Shown here in pieces: positions 3,388-51,500 of a DNA stretch of 64,000 bases. Every line of letters starts with the position of its first letter. The stretch's first letter is position 1. Both the position numbers and the translations under genes were made by a program. The DNA comes from a virus. The notes under the pieces were generated by a model, which was given only the letters and a program-made list of their open reading frames with translations, was not told where the DNA came from and did no database searches. The stretch lies in IMG/VR virus record IMGVR_UViG_3300036832_001166, positions 61,433 to 125,432 of that record. One strand, 5' to 3'.

Positions 3388-4280
3388 TGGCCGTCAGCAA
3401 CCAGGAGTCGAGAAGCGATGGTCTGAAGGTGACGATCTCCGCGTTCGGCAACGGGCTGACCGTCAACAAGCAGGGCCGTCCGCTGCTGCCGCGCCCGTTC
3501 GTGTTCCAGTGCCCGCCGCTGGAGCAGTTCACGATCGCGCACCAGCAGAACTTCGGCACCTACGACACCATCGACGACGACCAGTACTCGCGCCGCGGCT
3601 CGCGTCAGCTCGACACCTGGTCGTTCGACACGCTGGCCATGTACCTCGGCGTCGACGCGCAGGGCCGCTACGAGCCGAGCTGGGTGCCGTACCCGACCCG
3701 CGAGTCGCATGGCTTGCAGTACCAGGCGCCAGAGTGGTACCGCAAGCAGCTCTGGGATCTGCACGATGCCGGGTCGCCGTTCCGCTTCGTCGCCGCGTTC
3801 AAGCGGTCCACAACGATCCGCCGCACGTACGCGACGCTGACCGCCTTCAACGAGGACTACAAGCACGGCGAGGGTGACGTGATCTACTTCAGTGCGGTCA
3901 GCTTCCAGGAGTGGCGCGACCCGGGCGACGCGTCACAACCCAAGCCCCGCGGCTCGGACAAGCTGCCCGCGCACGTGCGCTTCCGCTTCACCGGCGGACG
4001 CTATCTCGCCTATGACACCGAGACGGGCCGGACCATCCCGGCGCGCGGCGGAGCGGGCACGACCATGAACGATCTCGCGCGCTTCTACTACGGCAACGCG
4101 TCAGACTGGCGGCTGATCGCCAAGGCCAACCACCTACGCGGCGGCAGCGGCCTGACGCAGATCTACAAGCACTGGTATCCGCACCGGATCTCGCGCGGCA
4201 AGCCGAACGCCACGATGACGATCCCCAAGCAGCCACACAAGCCCTCTCCGGCCCGTACTGCCCCGGCCAAGGCGAAGTGA
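3387..4280 (+). CDS. Tail tube initiator / LysM-domain baseplate protein
   Basis: LysM-like TMNDLARFYYGNASDWRLIAKAN near the C-terminus; position between tape measure and hub, as in contractile tails. Confidence 0.75.
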   Translation: MAVSNQESRSDGLKVTISAFGNGLTVNKQGRPLLPRPFVFQCPPLEQFTIAHQQNFGTYDTIDDDQYSRRGSRQLDTWSFDTLAMYLGVDAQGRYEPSWVPYPTRESHGLQYQAPEWYRKQLWDLHDAGSPFRFVAAFKRSTTIRRTYATLTAFNEDYKHGEGDVIYFSAVSFQEWRDPGDASQPKPRGSDKLPAHVRFRFTGGRYLAYDTETGRTIPARGGAGTTMNDLARFYYGNASDWRLIAKANHLRGGSGLTQIYKHWYPHRISRGKPNATMTIPKQPHKPSPARTAPAKAK

Positions 4281-4281
4281 C

Positions 4282-5829
4282 ATGGCCGCCACGATCAGCG
4301 CTGCCGAGCGCCACCAGGAGGTCCGCTTTGAGGACATGGTCGTCGATCAGCTTGAGCACACGATCACGACGCCCGACCTCTGGAAGACGCGCGTGCGAGT
4401 GGTGGCCCGCACCGTCGACGGGAACCAGGACATCTCCAAGCTGTGCGACACCCTGAACTGGCAGGACCAGTCCACCGACGATCTGCGCAACATCAACACG
4501 CAGGCGGCGATGACCGGCTCGATCACGCTGAACAAGCCCGCGCTGCGCCAGTACGCCAAGCTGCTGGCCCCAGCGTTCTCCGCGCGCATCGTCAACGGCA
4601 CCGACCGGTGGGGTGCGATGGGGATCGTGATCATCTGCCAGGTCGGCTACGGCAAGCACTACACGAACATCTGGGCGATGCGCGTTGGGCCTGGCTACGA
4701 CACGGGGATCGCGGAGACGGTGACGCTGTCGAGCGGCAGTGACACGCTGAACCTCGCCGACGATCTGTGGACGCTCGCGCAGACCGTCGCCGACTTCAAG
4801 TACACGAAGGGCAAGGTGTCACGCAAGAACGGCTGGCGTTGTCACGAGATCGCCCATGACGTGTGTCAGCGCTACCGGGTGCCGGTCCGCGCGCTGTCGC
4901 AAGGCACCGCCTACTTCTCGATGGCGGCGTCAAGCACGAAGCTGACGTCGCCGGTGCATGTGATTACCCGCGCCTACCAGGAGGAGACCAAGCGCACCGG
5001 GCGCACGTTCATCATCCGCTGGGGAGCGCCCGACAAGAAGTTCCCGTTCGGAGCGCTGGAGGTGGTCCCCATGCGCCGCAACCGCAACCTCACGAAGTTC
5101 CGCCAGCAGCTCCTCGACGCGACGCTCACCCGCAACCAGGCTGTCGGCTTCGCGACCGTGATCCTGGCGCGCGGAACGATGAAGGGGCCGAAGGGCAAGA
5201 AGACGCAGAAGGTCACCGCGACGGTCACCTCAGATGCGGCGATCCGACGGTTCGGGTTCATCCGCAAGACGATCGACTTCGGCACCGTCTCCTCCCGGCT
5301 GGAGCTGCAGATCCTGGCGCAGCGCACGCTCGCGCAGCGCCTGTCGCCGATCCGTACCGCCGAGCTGAACCATCCGGGGATCGCGACGATCCGCCGCGGC
5401 GACGCCGTCCACATTGACCTGCCCGAGGAGGGGTACTCGGACTCGTGGCTGGCCTCGCTGGCGACACCGGGCACCAAGGGCGACCACTCCAAGGCGCTGA
5501 TCGCAGCGCTGACGGCCGCGGAGAAGAGCGACCCGACGATGTTCGGCCTACCGGACCCGACGCTTGCTGCCCAGGCCGCCAGCGCGACGCCTGCCGCGAA
5601 CGCGCCCGCGTTCATGCCGGTCGCCAACCAGGGGATCGCGTTCGTCACCTCTGCCGCGCACTCGGTGTCGGCCGGGAGCTACACGATGGATCTCACGACG
5701 AGCTTCATCGACGTTCTCGACCCGCGCGAGGTGCGGGCGCAGGTGGACAAGACGGTCCGCGCCTGGAAGGCGTCGCAGGCGACGACGCCGTCCAAGACCG
5801 CGAAGGCCAAGCAGGCGAAGAAGAAGTAG
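4282..5829 (+). CDS. Baseplate hub protein (XkdQ/gp27-like)
   Basis: Size, synteny, and motifs such as EIAHDVCQRYRVPV and AIRRFGFIRK...IRRGDAVHI, typical of XkdQ-like hubs. Confidence 0.7.
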   Translation: MAATISAAERHQEVRFEDMVVDQLEHTITTPDLWKTRVRVVARTVDGNQDISKLCDTLNWQDQSTDDLRNINTQAAMTGSITLNKPALRQYAKLLAPAFSARIVNGTDRWGAMGIVIICQVGYGKHYTNIWAMRVGPGYDTGIAETVTLSSGSDTLNLADDLWTLAQTVADFKYTKGKVSRKNGWRCHEIAHDVCQRYRVPVRALSQGTAYFSMAASSTKLTSPVHVITRAYQEETKRTGRTFIIRWGAPDKKFPFGALEVVPMRRNRNLTKFRQQLLDATLTRNQAVGFATVILARGTMKGPKGKKTQKVTATVTSDAAIRRFGFIRKTIDFGTVSSRLELQILAQRTLAQRLSPIRTAELNHPGIATIRRGDAVHIDLPEEGYSDSWLASLATPGTKGDHSKALIAALTAAEKSDPTMFGLPDPTLAAQAASATPAANAPAFMPVANQGIAFVTSAAHSVSAGSYTMDLTTSFIDVLDPREVRAQVDKTVRAWKASQATTPSKTAKAKQAKKK

Positions 5830-16615: not shown

Positions 16616-16686
16616 CCCGCAAACTGCGGGATCTTTCCGGTTGTGGGCGCCCGGGGGCGGGTGTAACGTGAATGGTCTACCGGCCA

Positions 16687-16705
16687 AAGCGCACGTCGTG
16701 TGCTC
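16687..16705 (+). promoter_or_regulatory. Palindromic operator copy downstream of a sigma70-like promoter (TTGTGG-N17-TAACGT, 16640-16668) for the primase-helicase
   Basis: AAGCGCAC-GTC-GTGTGCTC matches the genome-wide TAGCRCAC-N3-GTGTGCTA consensus. Confidence 0.55.
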
Positions 16706-16752
16706 GGCTGTCTTGTTCGCGTGGAACGGGCCCGGCGGGCCCTGGAGGTCGT

Positions 16753-18564
16753 ATGCCGTCTGAGGCTGTCACCAAGGTGCTGTCCCGTCTGTGGGCGTTG
16801 GACTGTGACGCGAAGGGCTCAGAGCAGCACGGCTGGAACGCCAAGTGCCCGGCGCACGAGGACCGCAGCCCGAGCCTGAAGCTCGACCAGGGCGACGACG
16901 GCCGCGCGCTGATCTACTGCCACGCCGGATGCACCCTGGAGGCGCTGACGGCCGCGATGGCGCTGGACCCCTCAGACCTGTTTGAGGCCGAGCCCGCGCC
17001 GATCCCCGAGCGGGTCGTGATCGAACGCTACGACTACGTCGACGAGGACGGTACGTTGCTGTTCCAGGTCGAGCGGATGCGCCCCAAGGCGTTCCGCCAG
17101 CGCCGCCCCAACGGCCACGGCGGCTGGGAGTACTCCCTCGGCGATGTGCGCCGCGTCCTGTACCGGCTGCCGAAGGTGATCGAGGCGGTCAAGGCCGGGG
17201 AGATCATCTGTGTCGTCGAGGGCGAACGCGACGTCCACACCCTGGAGGGCAAGGGCAAGGTCGCGACGACGTGCCCCGGCGGCGCCGGGAAGTGGCGCGA
17301 CCAGTACTCAGAGACGCTCCGCGGCGCGAAGGTCGCGATCATCCAGGACGCCGACCCGCTCGATCCGAAGACCGGCAAGCGCCCCGGCCAGGATCACGCC
17401 CTGCAGGTCCGCGCGGCGTTGGACGGCGTCGCTGCTGCTGTCAAGGTGTTCCAGCCCGCCGTCGGCAAGGACGTCACCGACCACGTGAAGGGTGGCCTGC
17501 CGCTGTCTGAGCTGGTCGACGTCACCGACGGGGAGCCTGCTAGACCGAAGATGGAGGTGCTGTCCGCGCGCGCCATGATGGAGCTGCCGGACCCTGACCA
17601 GGAGGGGTACCTGCTCGGCCCGCTGATCTACCGCGGGCACCGCATCGTGATCGGCGGCTGGACCGGCCACGGAAAGACCACCTTCTGCATGCACATGGTC
17701 GCCTCCGCCGTCGAGGGCCGCGAGTTCCTGCGGCCCGGCTGGACCGGCAAGGGCAAGCTCAAGGCGCTGGTCGTCGACGTCGAGCAGGGCACCAAGACCG
17801 TCAAACGCGTGCTCCGCGAGGTTGGCCTGGACCGCTCCGAGCAGGTGCAGTACCTACGCGTCGCTGACGGGCTCGCGCTCGACAACGACCCGGACGCGAT
17901 CGCGTTCATGGAGAAGACGCTGCACGAGGGCCACTTCGACATCGTCCTTGCCGACCCGCTGTACAAGCTCGGCCGCGGCGATCTCAACGACGCGCGCGCC
18001 GCCACCGACCTGATGCGCCGGTTCGATGACTGGCGTGAGCGCTACGAGTTCGCGCTGCTGCTGCCTATGCACTGCCGCAAGCCGAAGGAGACCGCCAAGC
18101 TGTCCGCGCATGACTTGTTTGGAAGCAGTGCCTATCAATGGGGTGCCGAGGCCCTGCTCGGGATCGAGCGCAAGAGCCGGTCGCTCACCTGGCTGCACTG
18201 GTGGAAAGACCGCGAGGGCGAGCTGGTCGAGGACGGCGCGCAGCTCGGCGGCCACTGGAACCTGCACTTCGACCGGCGCCGCGGGTTTGAGAAGTACCCC
18301 GAGCATGAGCAGGACAAGCTCGTCGAGGTGTCCGCCACCCCCCGCTTCGATCTCGACGAGTTCTGCCTCGACGCGATCAAGCAGCTCGGCACCGCCACCC
18401 GCGAGGACATCCACCGCCGCCTGCGCCACCAGGGCCGACTCGATGTCAGCGTCGCGAAGATCACCCGCGCCTGCGAGCGACTCGGCGGCCGCGGCGTCAT
18501 GAGCAACGGCGAACACTTCCTCAAGGACCGCGCCTACTACCTCCAGGACGAGCTGACGGTGTAG
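16753..18564 (+). CDS. DNA primase-helicase (Zn finger + TOPRIM + AAA_25/RepA-type helicase)
   Basis: CPAHEDRSPSL...YCHAGC Zn finger; VVEGERD and QDAD TOPRIM motifs; Walker A GWTGHGKTT; Walker B IVLADP; GGAGG RBS. Confidence 0.9.
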   Translation: MPSEAVTKVLSRLWALDCDAKGSEQHGWNAKCPAHEDRSPSLKLDQGDDGRALIYCHAGCTLEALTAAMALDPSDLFEAEPAPIPERVVIERYDYVDEDGTLLFQVERMRPKAFRQRRPNGHGGWEYSLGDVRRVLYRLPKVIEAVKAGEIICVVEGERDVHTLEGKGKVATTCPGGAGKWRDQYSETLRGAKVAIIQDADPLDPKTGKRPGQDHALQVRAALDGVAAAVKVFQPAVGKDVTDHVKGGLPLSELVDVTDGEPARPKMEVLSARAMMELPDPDQEGYLLGPLIYRGHRIVIGGWTGHGKTTFCMHMVASAVEGREFLRPGWTGKGKLKALVVDVEQGTKTVKRVLREVGLDRSEQVQYLRVADGLALDNDPDAIAFMEKTLHEGHFDIVLADPLYKLGRGDLNDARAATDLMRRFDDWRERYEFALLLPMHCRKPKETAKLSAHDLFGSSAYQWGAEALLGIERKSRSLTWLHWWKDREGELVEDGAQLGGHWNLHFDRRRGFEKYPEHEQDKLVEVSATPRFDLDEFCLDAIKQLGTATREDIHRRLRHQGRLDVSVAKITRACERLGGRGVMSNGEHFLKDRAYYLQDELTV

Positions 18565-18841
18565 GCGCGATCGCGATGGAGCCCCCACCCCGATAGGGCC
18601 ACCAAGGGGACCACGGTCGCTCCTCGCCTGGAGCGGAGGCCGTCCGGTAGACCATTGAAGCGCGGAGCTTGTAGCCCGGGAACGGGGTGAAGTGCGTGGC
18701 GCGCTGAGGTCGACGGAGCCCGACGAACTGTCGATGGACTCAGCGTCGGAAGCTCAGGTTTTTCTGCTCCCCAGGGGCAGTAGGCCTAAGCCCTCGCCTG
18801 CCTCGGATCTTGCATCGGAAGGGCCCGACGGTAAGGGGGGG

Positions 18842-18850
18842 TGCTAACAT
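18842..18850 (+). promoter_or_regulatory. Extended -10 promoter for the stand-alone GGY-NN array
   Basis: TGC-TAACAT (TGnTAnnnT) 12 nt upstream of the first GGCCC unit, overlapped by a partial operator. Confidence 0.5.
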
Positions 18851-18862
18851 CGTGTGCGATGC

Positions 18863-18967
18863 GGCCCGGCCAGGCTGGGCTAGGCGCGGCGAGGGAGGCC
18901 CGGCAAGGCAGGGCTCGGATGGGCTTGGCGCGGGAGGAGGGATCGGCCCGATGGTCGCTCCCTCCTC
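18863..18967 (+). ncRNA. Putative guide-like ncRNA: 14 GGY-NN units plus 3' hairpin
   Basis: GGCCC GGCCA GGCTG GGCTA GGCGC GGCGA GGGA GGCCC GGCAA GGCAG GGCTC GGATG GGCTT GGCGC, then stem GAGGAGGGATCGGCC-cgat-GGTCGCTCCCTCCTC. Intergenic. Confidence 0.7.
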
Positions 18968-19442
18968 AACTCTCCAGCCGCTGCTTGAGTCGCTCGATCG
19001 CGGCTTTGGCGGCTTCAACTTCGCCGGGCTCGGCGTTCGCGGACGGGTCGAGCACGCGTTCCATCAGCTCGATCCGGCGTTGCAGCGGGCGGCGTTTGGC
19101 CATGCTGTTGAGCACGTCGTTGACGCTGTCGCGCAGGTACTCCAGCTCTTCGACGAACCGCTCCTCGTCGTACTCGTCGATCACCTTCTCGACGGCGTTG
19201 TCGTATGTGCTGGTGTAGGTGAGGTCGGCCGCGATCAACTTCTCGATGTACCGGATCACCGCGATCAGGTCTTCGGTCTTGCGGTGGTATTGGTCGCGCA
19301 GGCCGGGCCGGTGCCGGTAGCTCGGCTTGGTCGTCCAGCCGTACCATTGCTGGAACGCGGGCTGGGTGTAGATCGACCCTTCGTTCACGTGGTACAGCTC
19401 GCCGTCGATGACCGACCGGACGTAGATCTTCTTGGGCATCAC
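18966..19442 (-). CDS. Hypothetical protein with DUF2786-like C-terminal helical hairpin
   Basis: Good codon usage; C-terminus RIELMERVLDPSANAEPGEVEAAKAAIERL; coupled to the upstream gene. Confidence 0.65.
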   Translation of the reverse strand: MMPKKIYVRSVIDGELYHVNEGSIYTQPAFQQWYGWTTKPSYRHRPGLRDQYHRKTEDLIAVIRYIEKLIAADLTYTSTYDNAVEKVIDEYDEERFVEELEYLRDSVNDVLNSMAKRRPLQRRIELMERVLDPSANAEPGEVEAAKAAIERLKQRLES

Positions 19443-20095
19443 GCCGCCTCGTCGAGTCGGTCTTCCAGCTCGGCGGCCTTGGTGTAGAAGCTGTCGGCCT
19501 CCTCAGGGTTGCCGAGCGCGAGCACGCTGTCGGCCTTGTCGCGCAGCGCCTTGATCTTGTCGCGGAGCTGCTTGTCGCCGCGCTGCGTGTCGATCCCGGC
19601 CACGAGCCGCGTGAGTGCGTCGAGCGCCGAGACGGCGCCGTCGTACACCTCTTCCAGCTCGTTGTCGGGCACCGAGTCCTTCGACCAGTAGATCATCGGC
19701 TGGATCCGCCGGGCGTGCAGCGCCAGCTCCAGCACCTTGCGGCGCTCCTGGATCCAGCGCGAGCGGCTGGACGTGCCCGCTTCCTTCTCCATCCGGCGGT
19801 AGCCGCTGATCTGCGTCGCGAGCCCGCTTAGCTCGTGCTTGGGCCCGCTGGCGGCGCGCTCCTTGTAGGCGATCACGCACCGGATCCCGAACAGGATCGT
19901 CGGCGACAGCGGCTTACGCTCGGTGCCGTCAGCCCGGCGCGCGGGCCAGTCGTCAGTCCCGGCCTTGGACGCGGCCACGATCGCGTCCCGTGGCTTGCGC
20001 CGGATCAGCATCTTCTCCACCCACTCCACCACGGCATCGTCGTGCGCGATGCTGTCGCGGCCCCCGATCAGGGAGGTCCAGTCTCTTGCCATCAT
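19439..20095 (-). CDS. Hypothetical protein with DUF2786-like C-terminal helical hairpin
   Basis: GACCGAGGAG before ATG 20095; C-terminus KIKALRDKADSVLALGNPEEADSFYTKAAEL. Confidence 0.7.
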   Translation of the reverse strand: MMARDWTSLIGGRDSIAHDDAVVEWVEKMLIRRKPRDAIVAASKAGTDDWPARRADGTERKPLSPTILFGIRCVIAYKERAASGPKHELSGLATQISGYRRMEKEAGTSSRSRWIQERRKVLELALHARRIQPMIYWSKDSVPDNELEEVYDGAVSALDALTRLVAGIDTQRGDKQLRDKIKALRDKADSVLALGNPEEADSFYTKAAELEDRLDEAA

Positions 20096-20195
20096 TGTCT
20101 CCTCGGTCTTTGATGCAGGGGGCCGGGCTGCCGGTGCTAGCGGAGCGAGGTCACCCGTCGCTGGCCTAGCAGCGCCACCCCGGCCCTTCCTGCGG

Positions 20196-20915
20196 TTACT
20201 CGTCCTCTTCGCCGTTCGCTTCGGCGCGGAGGGTGTAGGCGGCCAGGGCCTTGTCACCGGCCTGCTTGGCTGCCTTCTTCAGAGCCGAGCGGGCCCGGCC
20301 CTTGAGCGTCGGAAGCTGCCGGGTGAACAGGCCCACCTGCTCAGCGGCACCGACCAGCGCGATCTCGGCCTTGTCGGTCATCGGTCGGATGATCTCGGCC
20401 TCGACGTACTTCGCCTCGTTGGTCAGGAACAGGTAGTCGCCTGCCTTGACCAGCACGAGGTCGTCCAGCTCGTCGCGGACCCAGCGCTGCAGGGTGCCGC
20501 CGTACTTGTGGTCGACCAGCTTCCAGATGTGCTGCTCGGCCTTGTGCCACGCGGTGCGGGCAAGCGCGTCCTGCGCGTCCCACGCGTCGGCGTCGCCGTG
20601 GGGCGGCGGCACCGGCTCGTTGGTTAGCAGCGCTCCCGCGACCAGGTAGCGGTGGATCGGCACGTCGAGCCGCTCCTCCTTGGCCGCCCCGACAACATGG
20701 TCCTGAGCGATCGCGAAGATGGCCTTCTTGATCGCTTCGTTGTCGACCTTCTCCACGGGCGTGATCTTGCTGTCGTCGACGTACGTGAACTCGTACTCGC
20801 GCAGCAGCGCCCGCATCGCCAATGCCTCGGTGACCGAGACGCTGGCGCTTGACCTGACCGCCTCCTCGTAGGCCTGGACGGCCTCCGCGAGGTGGTCCTG
20901 GGATTGTGTAGCCAT
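20196..20915 (-). CDS. Hypothetical helical protein, first gene of the leftward operon divergent from the RAMP-like gene
   Basis: GGAAGGAAGG RBS before ATG 20915; coding-like composition. Confidence 0.75.
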   Translation of the reverse strand: MATQSQDHLAEAVQAYEEAVRSSASVSVTEALAMRALLREYEFTYVDDSKITPVEKVDNEAIKKAIFAIAQDHVVGAAKEERLDVPIHRYLVAGALLTNEPVPPPHGDADAWDAQDALARTAWHKAEQHIWKLVDHKYGGTLQRWVRDELDDLVLVKAGDYLFLTNEAKYVEAEIIRPMTDKAEIALVGAAEQVGLFTRQLPTLKGRARSALKKAAKQAGDKALAAYTLRAEANGEEDE

Positions 20916-21008
20916 GCCCTTCCTTCCTGCCGGTGCGAGGTTGCCCGTCGCTCGGCGGTTGACTCCGGTGCGAGGGCCTGGCTCGGCCCGTCGCTCGGCA
21001 TGGCCGGG

Positions 21009-21058
21009 ACTGTAGCACACGACTTGTTTGACGGGTCGCACGAATCGTGTGCTACAGT
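21009..21058. promoter_or_regulatory. Divergent promoter pair formed by a perfect 14-bp inverted repeat
   Basis: ACTGTAGCACACGA (21009-21022) and TCGTGTGCTACAGT (21045-21058); each arm carries TGC-TACAGT pointing outward. Confidence 0.8.
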
Positions 21059-21152
21059 TCGCCCCCTCGGCCATGCATGGCACGGTAAGGCTGGTACGGC
21101 CGGGGCACATAATGCGAACTGCCTCAATGACGAGGCAAGGGGGCAAACCCAC

Positions 21153-21869
21153 ATGATGAATGGGCCTGTCCGACGGGTGATCCCCGTCGGATACCAGGTG
21201 TACAGGCTGCGGTTGGATGGACAGTCGCCGCTTCTGATGAACTCGTCCGAGTACGACCGGGCGAGCGACACATACCGAGCGTTCAAGGCGCTCGGCAGCA
21301 AGCGCGGCAAGACGATCGAGGACGAGCTACGTCTCGGCGAGCTGGAGTTCCACCTCGGGCTGCACTACGACGAGAAGGTCGGAGTGTTCATCCCCGGGAT
21401 CAACCTCAAGGAGCTGATCCGCTCCGCCGCCACGAAGTACCGCAAGGGCGAGGAGATCCGGCGCAGCCTGATCGTGCCGGACTACCGGATCCCGCTGATC
21501 TACGACGGCCCGCGCACGCCCGCGGAGCTGTACGCGCAGGGCTATTACGACACGCGCATGGTCGCGAACGCTGGCGCCGGTTCCGGCCGCGTGCCGAGGA
21601 CACGACCCGCGTTTGAGGAGTGGGCGATCGAGACCGACATCGCGTTCGATCCGGAGGATCTCGACGACGACCTCGTCCAGAACGCCATCGACCGCAGCAC
21701 GAAGTACGGCTTCGGGGATGGGCGCTCGATCGGCTTCGGCGCGTTTGAGCCGACGTTGACATTTCTCAGGCGTCAGTCGAAGGTCAGCAAGGCGGATGCG
21801 GTCAAGGCTCCGAACGGCCGCGCGAAGACCAACCTGGCGGCGGCGACGTCGCGGATCCTGAGTTCGTAG
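21153..21869 (+). CDS. Solitary RAMP/Cas7-like RNA-binding protein (Vipr-like candidate)
   Basis: N-terminal strand YRLRLDGQSPLLMN and C-terminal glycine-rich loop YGFGDGRSIGFGAF (GxGxxRSxGxG), hallmarks of the RAMP fold. No other cas gene or CRISPR array in the window. GGY-NN arrays begin at its stop codon. Confidence 0.7.
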   Translation: MMNGPVRRVIPVGYQVYRLRLDGQSPLLMNSSEYDRASDTYRAFKALGSKRGKTIEDELRLGELEFHLGLHYDEKVGVFIPGINLKELIRSAATKYRKGEEIRRSLIVPDYRIPLIYDGPRTPAELYAQGYYDTRMVANAGAGSGRVPRTRPAFEEWAIETDIAFDPEDLDDDLVQNAIDRSTKYGFGDGRSIGFGAFEPTLTFLRRQSKVSKADAVKAPNGRAKTNLAAATSRILSS

Positions 21870-22043
21870 GCCTTGGCGCGGTAGGGCGCGGCCCGGCGGG
21901 TTCGGCACGGACGGCTCGGTTGGCCAGGCCCGGACCGGCAGGGCTCGGCCGGGCGAGGCTCGGCACGTCCGGCTAGGCGGGGCATGGCACGGCACGGGTC
22001 GTTCTATGCGGGGGCCGGTCGAATGATCGGCCTCCTGCGTAGA
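21869..22043 (+). ncRNA. GGY-NN array 1 (about 26 units) with 3' hairpin
   Basis: GGCGC GGTAG GGCGC GGCCC ... GGCAT GGCAC GGCAC GGG, then an 18-bp stem with one bulge and a GAAT loop (22003-22043). Confidence 0.75.
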
Positions 22044-22046
22044 CAC

Positions 22047-22278
22047 GGCTGGGCGCGGTTGGCAAGGCTCGGATGGCGTGGACTGGCTAGGCTCGGAACG
22101 GTTGGGCGTGGTAGGCGAGGCGGGCGAGGCGAGGCGGGCAAGGCCCGGCTTGGCGAGGTTGGTAAGGCGGGGTACGGCATGGCAGGCTTGGCACGGCGTG
22201 ACATGGCGGGGCAATGCCCGGCGTGGCACGGCAAGGCACGGCACGGGATCACCGGCAGCCTTCGGGCTGCCGGTGATC
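22047..22278 (+). ncRNA. GGY-NN array 2 (about 41 units) with perfect 3' hairpin
   Basis: GGCTG GGCGC GGTT GGCAA ... GGCAA GGCAC GGCAC GG, then GATCACCGGCAGCC-ttcg-GGCTGCCGGTGATC (22247-22278) followed by ACTTT. Confidence 0.75.
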
Positions 22279-22311
22279 ACTTTCGTCTGCGGCCGGTCGT
22301 AGACTCACGCT

Positions 22312-22836
22312 GTGATCGAGTTCGTGGTTCTCGGCAGGCCAGTCACGAAGGGTTCGACGACGTCGTTCGCTGCCAAGCGGAAGGACGGCACGCTCGTCAC
22401 GCGCGAGAACGGCAACCCGGTGGTCGTGACCCGCAACGCGTCCGGCGCCCGCGGCCGCACCTGGGAGAACGCCGTTGCGAGCTGCGCCCTGGAGGCGCGC
22501 GAGCTGGCCGGGGGCCGCATCGCCCGCGGCGAGCCGGTCGGCATCGAGGTGGTCTTCTTCCAGCCGCGGCTCGCCTCCCACTTCGGCACCGGCCGCAATG
22601 CGTGCAAGCTAAAGGACTCCGCGCCGCCGTTCCCGGCCACCCGGCCGGACGTCGATAAGTACCTGCGCGCGGTGCTCGATGCGCTCACTTCGGTGCTCTA
22701 CGCCGACGATGGACAGGTCGTGACCGTCCGCGCGGAGAAGCGGTTCGGCGATCCGGCGCGCGCGGAGATCCGCTGCTGGGTAGTGTCTGCGCTACCGGTC
22801 GACGGTCAGCTTGGCTTGGAGCTGGCGGTCGCCTAA
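22312..22836 (+). CDS. rusA: RusA-family Holliday junction resolvase
   Basis: FVVLGRPVTKGS; RPDVDKYLRAVLDALTSVLYADDGQVV. Confidence 0.85.
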   Translation: MIEFVVLGRPVTKGSTTSFAAKRKDGTLVTRENGNPVVVTRNASGARGRTWENAVASCALEARELAGGRIARGEPVGIEVVFFQPRLASHFGTGRNACKLKDSAPPFPATRPDVDKYLRAVLDALTSVLYADDGQVVTVRAEKRFGDPARAEIRCWVVSALPVDGQLGLELAVA

Positions 22837-22895
22837 AGGTTCGTACCGAGGAGACGACCGGCCTGGGTTCCACGCACCCGGGCCGGTCACCCCGG

Positions 22896-23174
22896 CTACG
22901 CCCAGCCCGCGAGCGTGTCGACCTGCTTGCGCCCCTGACGGCTCTTGTCCAGCGCCGCCTTGTGCTCGTCACCGGCGGCGCGACGCTCGTGGTAGATCGC
23001 GCTCTCAAGCTCAGCGATCGCGACGTCGCGCAGCGCCTTGATGTCAAGGTCGGCGTTGAGCTGCGCGATCACGACCGCGTGCAAGAGCGCATCAGCTCGG
23101 CGCCGGGCCTTCCGCGCCAGCGTCGCCCACCTCGGTGGCTGCATCGCCTTGAGCTGTTCGCGGGACAGGCTCAC
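22896..23174 (-). CDS. Hypothetical protein
   Basis: GTGA-coupled to the upstream gene; helical coding sequence. Confidence 0.55.
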   Translation of the reverse strand: MSLSREQLKAMQPPRWATLARKARRRADALLHAVVIAQLNADLDIKALRDVAIAELESAIYHERRAAGDEHKAALDKSRQGRKQVDTLAGWA

Positions 23175-48502: not shown

Positions 48503-51500
48503 ATGGATTGGGCGACAGCAGCGGCGATCGTGGCGGACAGGACACCGAGCCTGTCCGATCCACCCGACGCGCCAGGGGATGACCATGAGTTCTGGCAGCG
48601 GGTCAAGACGCTCGTCGACGGCGACGGCGACAGCATCGCGCTGAGCGAAGCCGAGCGCTACGACGAGATCCTGCACCCGCGCGACCGCAGCGGCAAGTGG
48701 ATGGCGAAGCTGGGGCTCTCGCATCTCCGCGAGGTCGGCGGAGCGCCGCGCGACGAGCTGCTCGGCAAGATCCCCAAGGACATCGACTACGTCGCCGCCG
48801 AGACCCCGGAGCGGATCAAGCAGGCGGTCGAGCAGGCAGGCGGGAAGACCGAGGAGCTGATGGTCCGCGACCGGCTGGTCGGCGTCCGCGCTACGCACCC
48901 GGCGTTGCCCGTCGGTGGCGTCGAGATCGTTCCCCCACGCGTGGAGGCGAGCACCGGGCCGGGGCGACACGACTTCGAGATCGTGCCGCACCCGGACCTG
49001 TATAGCCACGCCGAGCCGGGCCACGCTATGCCTCGCCACGCCCCACCCCGCCGAGCCGGGCCAGACCTCGCCGGGCCAAGCCCAGAGCAGGTTAGCCGGA
49101 TGCTGGCCGACGACGCGCAGCGTCGCGACTTCACGATCAACACTCTGCTGAGAGATCCCGCGACCGGCCAGCTCACCGACCCGACCGGCCACGGCGAGCA
49201 GGATGCGCGCAACCGGGTGTTGCGCATGGTTCACGACACGAGCTTCCAGGAGGACCCGCTGCGCATGCTGCGCGGTGCGCGCTTCGTCGCCCAGCACGGG
49301 CTGGAGCCCGACGCCGGGACGCTGGCAGCGATGCGCCGCGACTCCGGCGGGATGACCGCGCTGACCAAGAAGGGCGTCTCCGGGACCGTCCAGGACGAGC
49401 TGCGCAAGCTGCTGATGGGCGAGCACCCGGGCAAGGGTCTGCGGCTGATGCGCGACACCGGCATGTTCCAGACGCTGCTGCCCGAGCTGGCGCCGATGGT
49501 CGGATTTGATCAACGTTCGATCTACCACGAGCACGTGCTGGACGAGCACACGTTCAACGTGATCGACGAGCTGGCGCGGATGGGCGCGAGCCACGACGCG
49601 CGGCTGGCGGCCCTGTTTCACGACAGCGGCAAGCCGCTGACCGCCAACCTCAAGCCTGACGGCACGTACCGCTTCCACTCTCACCCCGAGCACGGCGACC
49701 ACGCCGACGTCGGCGCTGACATCGCGCGCCGCACGCTGAACCGCCTGAACTACCCGGCGGACACGATCAGCCACGTCACCGGGCTCGTCCGCGAGCACAT
49801 GCTCACCGCCGTCGAGAAGCCGACGCCGGTCAAGGCCCGCCGTCTGCGCGCCGCTCACTCCGACCGGTTCCTGACCGACCTGCTGGACCACAAGCAGGCC
49901 GACATGGAGGGCCACGGCGAAACGATCGCCAAGAGCCTGGAGGGCGTCCACAAGCTGCGCGACCTGCTGGCTGAGAACGCGCAGGCGCCGCGGTCGCTGA
50001 AGGATCTGAAGATCGACGGCCGCGACCTGATCGCGCAGGGCGTCGAGCCCGGGCCGCGGCTGGGCGCCATCCTGCGCCAGCTCCTGACCGAGGTGGTGCT
50101 CAACCCGGACCTGAACCGCCGCGAATGGCTGCTGCAGCGCGCCGAGCGCCTGGCCGTCACGCCGATGCAGGAGAGCGTCTACTCCGAGCTGCTGCATCCG
50201 CGTGACCGCGCGGGGAAGTGGATCGCGGGACGCCGGAAGCTTGTCGACCTGGACGCTATCGCCAGCCGCGCGCACGCCGGGCAGGTCGACAAGTCGGGGC
50301 GCCCGTACATGGAGCATGTGCGCGCCGTCGCCGACTCGGTCAAGCCCGAGGCGCGGCCGGTCGCGTTCATGCACGACGCGCTGGAGGACACGCAGATGGC
50401 CCCGCAGGATCTGGAGGGGGTCCTGGAGCCGCACGAGATCGAGGCGGTCAAGCTGCTGACCCGGCCGAAGGGCGACGGGATGAGCTACGACGCCTACATC
50501 GAGAAGATCGCGACGGCGCCCGGCCCGGCTGGGGAGCTGGCGCGCGAGGTCAAGGCCGCTGACCTGAACCACAACCTCGGCCGGATGAGCAACCTCGACG
50601 CGAAGACGCAGGCGCGGCTGCGTCCGCGCTACGAGGCGGCTATCGCGCGGCTGTCACCGGCGCCGCACCCGTTTCAGCAGGCGGGCGACCCGGAGAACTT
50701 CGCGGGCGTCACCCGCGAGCAGGCCGAGGCGCACCTCCGGCGGCTGTATGAGATCAGCCTGCGCTCACCCGAGCATGCCGCCAATCTTGCGTGGTACGAC
50801 ACGCAGCATGCGCTGATCCAGGATGTGGCCGCAGAGCACGGCGTCGACCCGGTCACGATGGCAGCAGCGATCTCGGCGACGTCGCCCCAACTCGCGTGGG
50901 ATCACACGTCGAAGGCTGGTGTGTTCACCCGCCCGAACCTGAGCCTGGCGCTCAACGCCCTGCGGCTCGCGCGCGCCTTCCCGGACGAGCCCGCGCCGCT
51001 GCTGGTCGAGCGGCTGCTGGCGGCGGCGGAGGGCCAGAAGGGCCCGAGCGAGGTTCAAGGTCTCGGCAGCTCGGTGGAGAAGGCGATCAGGATCTTTCGC
51101 GGCGAGGATCCCGACAAGGTGCTGACCGCACCGAAGACCCGGTCGTTCTACAACAACCTCGTCTGGCCCGAGCTGAGCACAACGGTCACCGTCGACGCGC
51201 ACATGGCGCGCGCCGGGCTGGGGATCCTGGAGAAGAAGGGCTACGCGCAAGCGGACAAGGCCATCGAGGAGAAGGCCAAGGGATCCGGCTACACGTGGAT
51301 GGCGAACCGCATCGAGGCGATCGCGCGCGAGTTCGGCGTGCTCCCCCACCAGGCCCAGGCCGCGATCTGGGTCGAACGCAAGCGCGAGTCAGACGAGGTC
51401 GAGCGGCTGGCCAAGGAGGCCGAGAAGAAGCGGTGGGCGAGCCTGACGAAGGAGGAGCAGGCGGCGGAGCGCGCGGCGAAGAAGGCCGAGCGCGAGCGCA

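Follow-up and report, generated by a model that had tools for sequence, protein, structure and literature searches.

A VIPR system in an uncultured 125-kb phage with guide arrays that decode to genes of other phages

We describe a locus in a 64,000-nt window of an uncultured virus genome (IMG/VR record IMGVR_UViG_3300036832_001166, bases 61433–125432 of the record) that consists of one gene, vipr, and arrays of GGY-NN pentamers (Y, C or T; NN, a variable dinucleotide) on the same strand. The locus is very probably a Viral Interference Programmable Repeat (VIPR) system, with which this 125-kb phage would, in co-infected cells, silence genes that competing phages and resident prophages cannot do without. 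VIPR, an RNA-guided silencer that resembles CRISPR but lacks a CRISPR array, has been published as three preprints (10.64898/2026.04.26.720920, 10.64898/2026.04.26.720927, 10.64898/2026.10.15.759431) and, because it is already described, the system in the window is a member of the family and not new in kind. In the mechanism we favor, Vipr protomers would polymerize on transcripts of the arrays, one protomer per unit, each protomer sequestering the GGY and presenting the NN dinucleotide; the filament would then bind double-stranded DNA that matches NN-x-NN-x, with every third base skipped, and block transcription there. Array A would be directed at a conserved motif near the 5′ end of a prohead protease–capsid gene in prophage-like elements of Solirubrobacterales, the last guide of array B (B8) at codons 4–13 of RusA in two sister phages, just downstream from a conserved promoter-like motif, an orphan array (U) at the primase-helicase of five other related phages, and the middle of array B possibly at a host sulfatase gene. 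Two of these sites are placed as would suit a silencing role: the capsid gene holds the protease site near its 5′ end, and the RusA site adjoins a promoter-like motif. Binding of one protomer per unit, pairing with skipped bases, repression, and a role in phage competition would carry over to this locus by analogy with studies of Escherichia phage phiSUSP1 (SUSP1).

By its sequence, the open reading frame (ORF) at the head of the locus is a Vipr protein of 238 amino acids. A tblastn search with it against isolated phages matched 130 records, among them SUSP1 (29.5% identity, E = 5e-13), in which the matched gene is a 195-aa ORF flanked by GGT-NN arrays. This ORF is the founding Vipr of the preprint that introduced the family (bioRxiv 10.64898/2026.04.26.720920), and BLASTP of the window protein against SUSP1 Vipr gave E = 8e-21. 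Among proteins of solved structure, a profile of 40 close relatives matched a single entry, "SUSP1 Vipr protein" (PDB 36pp; E = 1.6e-25, 186 residues), in line with the resemblance to VIPR suggested in the first-pass annotation, which had been made from the letters of the window without database searches. Pfam returned nothing for the protein, including no Cas family, and PHROGs returned a single family of unknown function (phrog_4652, E = 6.5e-35). The Vipr family as a whole comprises 1616 representative clusters at E ≤ 0.001. The start that gives 238 aa is correct, because close homologs (235–241 aa) align from residue 2–7 onward; the public gene call (P0001) uses an internal methionine and yields 210 aa, with the first beta-strand cut off.

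The N-terminal strand and G-rich loop from which the first-pass annotation had proposed a RAMP/Cas7-like identity are both present, and structure prediction agrees with that proposal. An AlphaFold2 model (pLDDT 87.8, pTM 0.76) found Csm3, Cmr4, and type VII Cas7 as its top Foldseek matches (E down to 7e-8, probability 1.00) in a library older than the release of the Vipr structure. The model points to a minimal RAMP fold with a single RRM core, a G-loop, and a thumb; alignment to SUSP1 assigns the G-loop to residues 186–197 and a beta-hairpin, which bears R151, to residues 146–165. Five SUSP1 residues (H17, R138, D177, W178, and R179) are reported to hold the GGY, with W178 stacking on G2. Three of them, R138, D177, and R179, align to R151, D189, and R191, which are invariant in the clade of the window protein. 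Members of this clade are ∼237 aa long and have in common a conserved extension at the C terminus, with a predicted helix at its end; in the window Vipr the extension is ∼40 aa and the closing helix spans residues 222–237.

The pentamers, which start right after the stop codon of vipr, fall into two blocks, A and B. What had been described as one non-coding run of ∼400 nt does start there; it consists of two arrays, however, with a 45-nt hairpin spacer between them and several 4-nt units (four in array A and nine in array B, besides several degenerate triplets). Arrays A and B end in the same two units, each followed by GGG and a strong hairpin (−36.6 kcal/mol, z score −5.8 for array A). Since array A ends in them as well, the two units that follow the B8 guide look like a 3′ handle; they do not pair with the RusA target. 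Every array in the window is capped by GGG and a stable hairpin, and the tail sequences are dissimilar between arrays. The TAGACA hexamer ahead of array B is a putative promoter element; hexamers of this −10-like TANNNT type were read by eye, and a scan for sigma-70 consensus promoters found none. We considered whether the 4-nt units might be borders between separate vrRNAs ("staggered arrays") and dropped this idea, since the collinearity of array A with its target continues through such units.

Tandem same-strand GGY-NN (YNNGG) repeats of at least four units flank vipr, and such chains far exceed chance expectation. The whole genome, counted on both strands, holds 12 chains of at least four perfect units versus 1.5 in 100 dinucleotide shuffles, and eight chains of at least five versus 0.07; the longest has 11 units, against at most five in shuffles. 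Two arrays lie beyond those that the first-pass annotation had listed, the orphan array U upstream of vipr on the same strand and an antisense array far downstream.

The association between array and gene recurs in relatives. Same-strand GGY-NN chains stand beside the vipr homolog in all six isolated-phage loci (SUSP1, Gordonia Trine and MakoManhole, Mycobacterium LittleE and prophiBWHA-1, and Pseudomonas LESphi2), with none on the opposite strand. The eight closest IMG/VR loci, retrieved with an alignment query (a single-protein query found none), all have arrays that start within ∼100 nt of the stop codon, and opposite-strand arrays occur in 0/8. Overall, arrays and homologs co-occur at 14/14 loci, so the expectation that homologs are consistently followed by such arrays was borne out. 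In the closest relative (68% identity; locus L007), an array of ∼650 nt and ∼130 units (3730–4384 of that locus) is built of runs of 11–16 units, split by single-base phase shifts. The sister phage G002 (99% complete, ∼84% nucleotide identity across 62% of the genome) lacks vipr and all of the arrays; relative to it, 18288–18975 and 19440–22297 are specific to the window.

By the published rule (bioRxiv 10.64898/2026.04.26.720920), each GGY in an array stands for one skipped target base. B8, U, and A, decoded in this way, all match in codon phase, and the base that is skipped is always the wobble base. The 20-base gapped pattern of B8 had two exact matches in IMG/VR, both at RusA codons 4–13, in two related phages of 107 and 122 kb that both lack VIPR. 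In both targeted phages a conserved TAGACT hexamer and a leaderless start immediately precede the site. B8 scored 20/20 against sister-phage RusA, compared with control maxima of 16–17.

For array A, a nine-unit core was found exactly in nine IMG/VR contigs, and all nine matches fall at one protease motif, read antisense, in a gene with fused Peptidase_S78 and Phage_capsid domains. The two sister phages had no match to this core. In 596 Gb of prokaryote genomes it matched 20 times, eight of them in the protease motif and all eight in Solirubrobacterales, Paraconexibacteraceae, or Actinomycetota metagenome-assembled genomes (MAGs); the remaining 12 are scattered and ascribed to chance. One genome site adjoins portal and terminase genes within a 2-Mb contig, and for this reason we regard it as part of a prophage-like element. 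Past the 18 searched bases, 27/30 further positions match, and the whole string, with 4-nt units counted as units, keeps the 3-nt phase at 45/48 NN positions. In its match to the target, then, the guide is not interrupted by the 4-nt units.

The orphan array pairs through 12 of its 14 units. Its 24-base pattern had five exact matches in IMG/VR, all in primase-helicase orthologs (60%–68% identity) and all at an invariant 12-residue motif, HDLFGSSAYQWG, for a score of 24/24 in five other phages. The one 4-nt unit of this array, when parsed as GGY plus a single N, gave 0 matches; re-parsed as a 2-nt constant plus NN, it gave the five exact ones. The proposal that the string of dinucleotides encodes a gapped target is thus upheld by three guides whose 1-nt-skip patterns fit phage genes exactly or almost so, with the amendment that the arrays hold several guides with separate targets and not one string. 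Decoded targets also predict the host of the carrier, which is probably a member of the Solirubrobacterales (Actinomycetota).

Under other skip lengths or with shuffled unit orders, scores were 14–30, against 20/20 for B8, 24/24 for U, and 45/48 for A. Several points weigh against this reading. The comparison of skip lengths is partly circular, in that 1-nt-skip patterns had served to find the target loci in the first place; exempt are the stretch by which array A was extended and those positions of the middle guide of array B that were re-parsed. That middle guide matches a conserved C-terminal motif in a gene of the Pfam Sulfatase family, in sense codon phase and at 21–23/24 NN positions. 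The five matching loci are in genomes assigned to the same order as a Solirubrobacterales MAG, and the match became better through a parse that was chosen post hoc. The guide has no match in related phages; we place moderate confidence in the match, which makes a bacterial gene, possibly of the host, the candidate target. Roughly one-third of array B and the antisense array were left without a target in the scans run; the 5′ part of array B had no match above controls in its own genome, the sister phages, or the target loci. Several runs between 4-nt units are merely two to five units long. In the protein, the equivalent of W178 is glycine (tyrosine in most of the clade) and that of H17 is asparagine, and because of these replacements recognition of GGY may differ in detail from that of SUSP1. 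With RusA activity possibly provided in trans in a co-infected cell, the gain from silencing the gene is uncertain. Finally, we infer transcription of the arrays, formation of a ribonucleoprotein, and silencing by analogy with the published systems.

The short and degenerate units raise the question of whether the arrays are decaying remnants beside an intact vipr, with most guides no longer able to form filaments. Their number, and the far more regular runs of 11–16 units in the closest relative, would be expected of such decay. Decay would not, however, preserve dinucleotide information and target phase across short units, as in array A, nor leave U and B8 perfect across 10–12 units, and we consider this explanation improbable.

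A different question is whether the system acts on the phage that carries it. The best own-genome scores of the guides are no better than those of shuffled-order controls, and no self-targeting was found at a threshold of at least 80% NN match, the own primase-helicase site reaching 19/24 (79%) on the 12 pairing units. One could still propose that the system mainly regulates genes of the phage itself, as a switch that times RusA and primase-helicase, the partial matches to the own alleles being its functional sites. The best own-genome matches of B8 and U are indeed the own RusA (17/24 with the handle units) and the own primase-helicase (20/27), and the guides lie only 0.1–0.7 kb from these genes. 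We nevertheless hold such a switch to be very improbable: these are the scores that do not rise above shuffled order, the same two guides match other phages perfectly, and perturbed NN pairing abolished silencing in published VIPR work. A further reading, in which a stray Cas7/Csm3 of CRISPR would stand next to GC-rich simple sequence that has nothing to do with it, for which one could cite Csm3 and Cmr4 as the top solved-structure matches in a Foldseek library predating the Vipr structure, is refuted by sequence similarity to SUSP1 Vipr and to no Cas protein or Pfam Cas family, by the absence of Cas1 and of a CRISPR array, and by arrays that accompany homologs at every locus surveyed and decode to real genes.

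Under our preferred reading, interference with other phages, the carrier's own copies of RusA and primase-helicase appear, from their sequences, to escape its guides by two routes. The own RusA site differs from the B8 guide at four NN positions and so encodes V, L, and R where the guide corresponds to T, I, and K; escape here would be due to the three amino acid changes. In the own primase-helicase site all 12 residues are unchanged, but leucine is encoded by TTG and serine by AGC or AGT in place of CTN and TCN, so that escape would come from synonymous switches between codon families. Sister phage G002 carries the own-type leucine and serine codons in its primase-helicase too. In the patch of the carrier's gene that holds this site, about half of the codons end in A or T, in a genome with ∼90% G+C at third codon positions.

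Guides and resistant alleles are also close neighbors. The RusA guide lies 90 nt upstream of the own diverged RusA site, the orphan guide 0.7 kb downstream from the own recoded primase-helicase site, and the antisense array ∼100 nt from its best (sub-threshold) match, in the CCA-enzyme gene. We tentatively suggest that these are poison–antidote pairs, each made up of a guide and, in tight linkage with it, a resistant allele of the carrier, an idea that we think has somewhat less than an even chance of being right. If true, VIPR guides may arise from the copy of the target gene that the carrier has, or be captured beside it. Another possibility is that selection holds a guide beside its immune allele, such that recombinants among related phages are never self-targeting. 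Each guide–allele pair would then be a selfish allelic drive. As a corollary, the six-fold-degenerate codons of leucine, serine, and arginine would offer a synonymous escape route from a code that skips the wobble base. Self-immunity through synonymous leucine and serine codons, linkage of guides to resistant alleles, and a vrRNA-like module inside a gene were not found in the accessible portions of the three VIPR preprints.

This module is the antisense array, which sits inside the head domain of a poly(A) polymerase/CCA-enzyme gene as a 75-nt in-frame insertion, absent from G002 in an alignment of the two. A TAACCT hexamer 6 nt upstream of it is comparable to the TAACAT that precedes the orphan array, and a hairpin lies downstream (z score −3.5). 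Three scans for its target found none. The best partial matches (21–23/32) are in the CCA gene of its own phage and of G002 and do not exceed controls; a lone metagenome match, on a contig of 51% GC without CCA homology, was treated as chance. Read on the plus strand, the array forms a loop rich in proline, arginine, histidine, and alanine.

Like the type II VIPR of SUSP1 and Pseudomonas fulva (10.64898/2026.04.26.720920, 10.64898/2026.04.26.720927; PDB 36pp), the window locus has a homologous Vipr (29% identity), same-strand vrRNAs of GGY-NN pentamers both upstream and downstream of vipr with a putative structured 3′ tail, carriage by a phage, 1-nt-skip wobble-aligned targets in competing mobile elements, and no self-targeting. 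Unlike them, it has no adjacent vap, a gene typical of most types though not of all; its Vipr is longer by the C-terminal extension and helix and differs from that of SUSP1 at the two GGY-contacting positions given above; one of its guide strings has ∼24 units versus the 9–16 reported; its arrays include 4-nt units that keep target phase; and its probable host belongs to a high-GC actinobacterial lineage. The SUSP1 tail is a pseudoknot, whereas the tails in the window are predicted to fold as simple GC hairpins. In another IMG/VR relative (L008), two arrays (3820–3870 and 3985–4035 of that locus) share a nearly identical 45-nt tail, a type II-like arrangement that is unlike the hairpin tails of the window.

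The orphan and antisense arrays resemble the solo or orphan vrRNAs of SUSP1-family phages and F5 satellites, as these are described in a later preprint (10.64898/2026.10.15.759431), in that they stand alone away from vipr, each has a promoter-like hexamer and a hairpin, and the non-self match exceeds the self match. They are unlike them in lying within a VIPR-positive genome, one of them antisense and in frame within a gene. The described solo vrRNAs target vipr, vrRNAs, or host REP decoys, whereas those of the window would target replication genes of relatives. With the backbone of class 1 CRISPR (Cas7/Csm3/Cmr4), the window protein shares an RRM core, a glycine-rich loop, a thumb hairpin, and, as predicted, one subunit per fixed RNA segment, with no detectable sequence similarity to Cas families. 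Unlike class 1 CRISPR, the window has no CRISPR array, Cas1, Cas3/Cas10, or other cas genes, and its guide is a noncontiguous code of 5-nt repeats and not a spacer. A statement to this effect in the first-pass annotation is confirmed at the scale of the genome, in which no Cas1 family member was matched and Tandem Repeats Finder reported no CRISPR-like repeat.

The first description of VIPR dates from 2026, and what is known of its biology comes mainly from one Escherichia coli phage and one Pseudomonas prophage. The locus reported here extends it to an uncultured phage, 125 kb in size, from a high-GC lineage of soil and provides a readable example with four decoded guides, three against essential replication, recombination, and head genes of relatives and resident prophages and one possibly against a host gene. 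It bears on how long a guide can be (∼24 units), on the tolerance of the filament for 4-nt units, and on whether vrRNA modules can insert inside genes. Moreover, if a synonymous switch of leucine and serine codon families suffices for carrier immunity, it would qualify the published claim that wobble skipping prevents silent escape.

The virus record is a complete genome; it is 125,432 bp long, has direct terminal repeats, and contains 68.7% G+C. Its window encodes tail and baseplate genes, RecT, an exonuclease, primase-helicase, RusA, the large terminase, and the CCA-enzyme fusion (for coordinates of the locus, see Table 1). RusA is the next gene after the arrays. No vap gene adjoins vipr, which was rightly called solitary in this respect, and no neighboring gene is shared with the eight closest loci. 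The two minus-strand ORFs upstream (19439–20257 and ∼20196–20915) were not called as vap, having no Pfam or PHROG match and not being conserved beside vipr elsewhere. Megablast of the region against isolated phages returned no match, and Rfam on 18000–23000 gave sub-threshold noise only, with no hammerhead ribozymes.

Table 1. Coordinates of the VIPR locus and associated features (window positions unless a locus is named)
Feature	Position	Strand	Details
Primase-helicase gene	16672–18564
Own primase-helicase copy of orphan target	18108–18143	+
Orphan vrRNA unit (U)	18845–18966	+	TAACAT −10-like hexamer, 14 GGY-NN units (18863–18931), 3′ hairpin
Minus-strand ORF	19439–20257	−	Cassette-specific; no Pfam/PHROG match
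Minus-strand ORF, listed as 318 aa	20196–21152	−	Cassette-specific; no Pfam/PHROG match
vipr gene	21153–21869	+	238 aa; RAMP/Cas7-like, VIPR family
vrRNA array A	∼21870–21995	+	About 24–25 GGY-NN units, four of 4 nt
Tail of array A and hexamer before array B	21996–22045	+	GGG and 3′ hairpin, then TAGACA −10-like hexamer
Array B	22047–22244	+	Hairpin tail, z score −5.3
Array B, 5′ part	22047–22122	+	16 units
Array B, middle guide	22123–22180	+	12 units
Array B, last guide (B8)	22185–22234	+	10 units; predicted target RusA codons 4–13
Shared 3′ handle and hairpin	22235–22278	+	Two AC units and GGG; 14-bp terminator-like hairpin
Hexamer, own RusA start, and diverged B8 site	22300–22350	+	TAGACT −10-like hexamer; diverged copy of B8 target site at 22321–22350
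Own RusA gene	22312–22836		GTG start at 22312, leaderless; RusA assigned by PHROG
Antisense array	49003–49094	−	16 perfectly phased units (49003–49082), TAACCT −10-like hexamer
CDS/array overlap, Trine gp40	L002, 3125–3182		Annotated coding sequence (CDS)
CDS/array overlap, LittleE gp35	L003, 2166–2358		Annotated CDS

The true start of the 318-aa ORF is probably an ATG near 20915, after a Shine-Dalgarno-like run, GGAAGGAAGGG. Between this divergent gene and vipr lies a 16-bp perfect inverted repeat (21007–21056, z score −5.85), which may be an operator or a terminator. In Gordonia phage Trine and Mycobacterium phage LittleE, annotated hypothetical coding sequences (gp40 and gp35, respectively) overlap GGC-NN arrays of 10–12 units beside the vipr homolog and are probably vrRNA regions that were annotated as genes.

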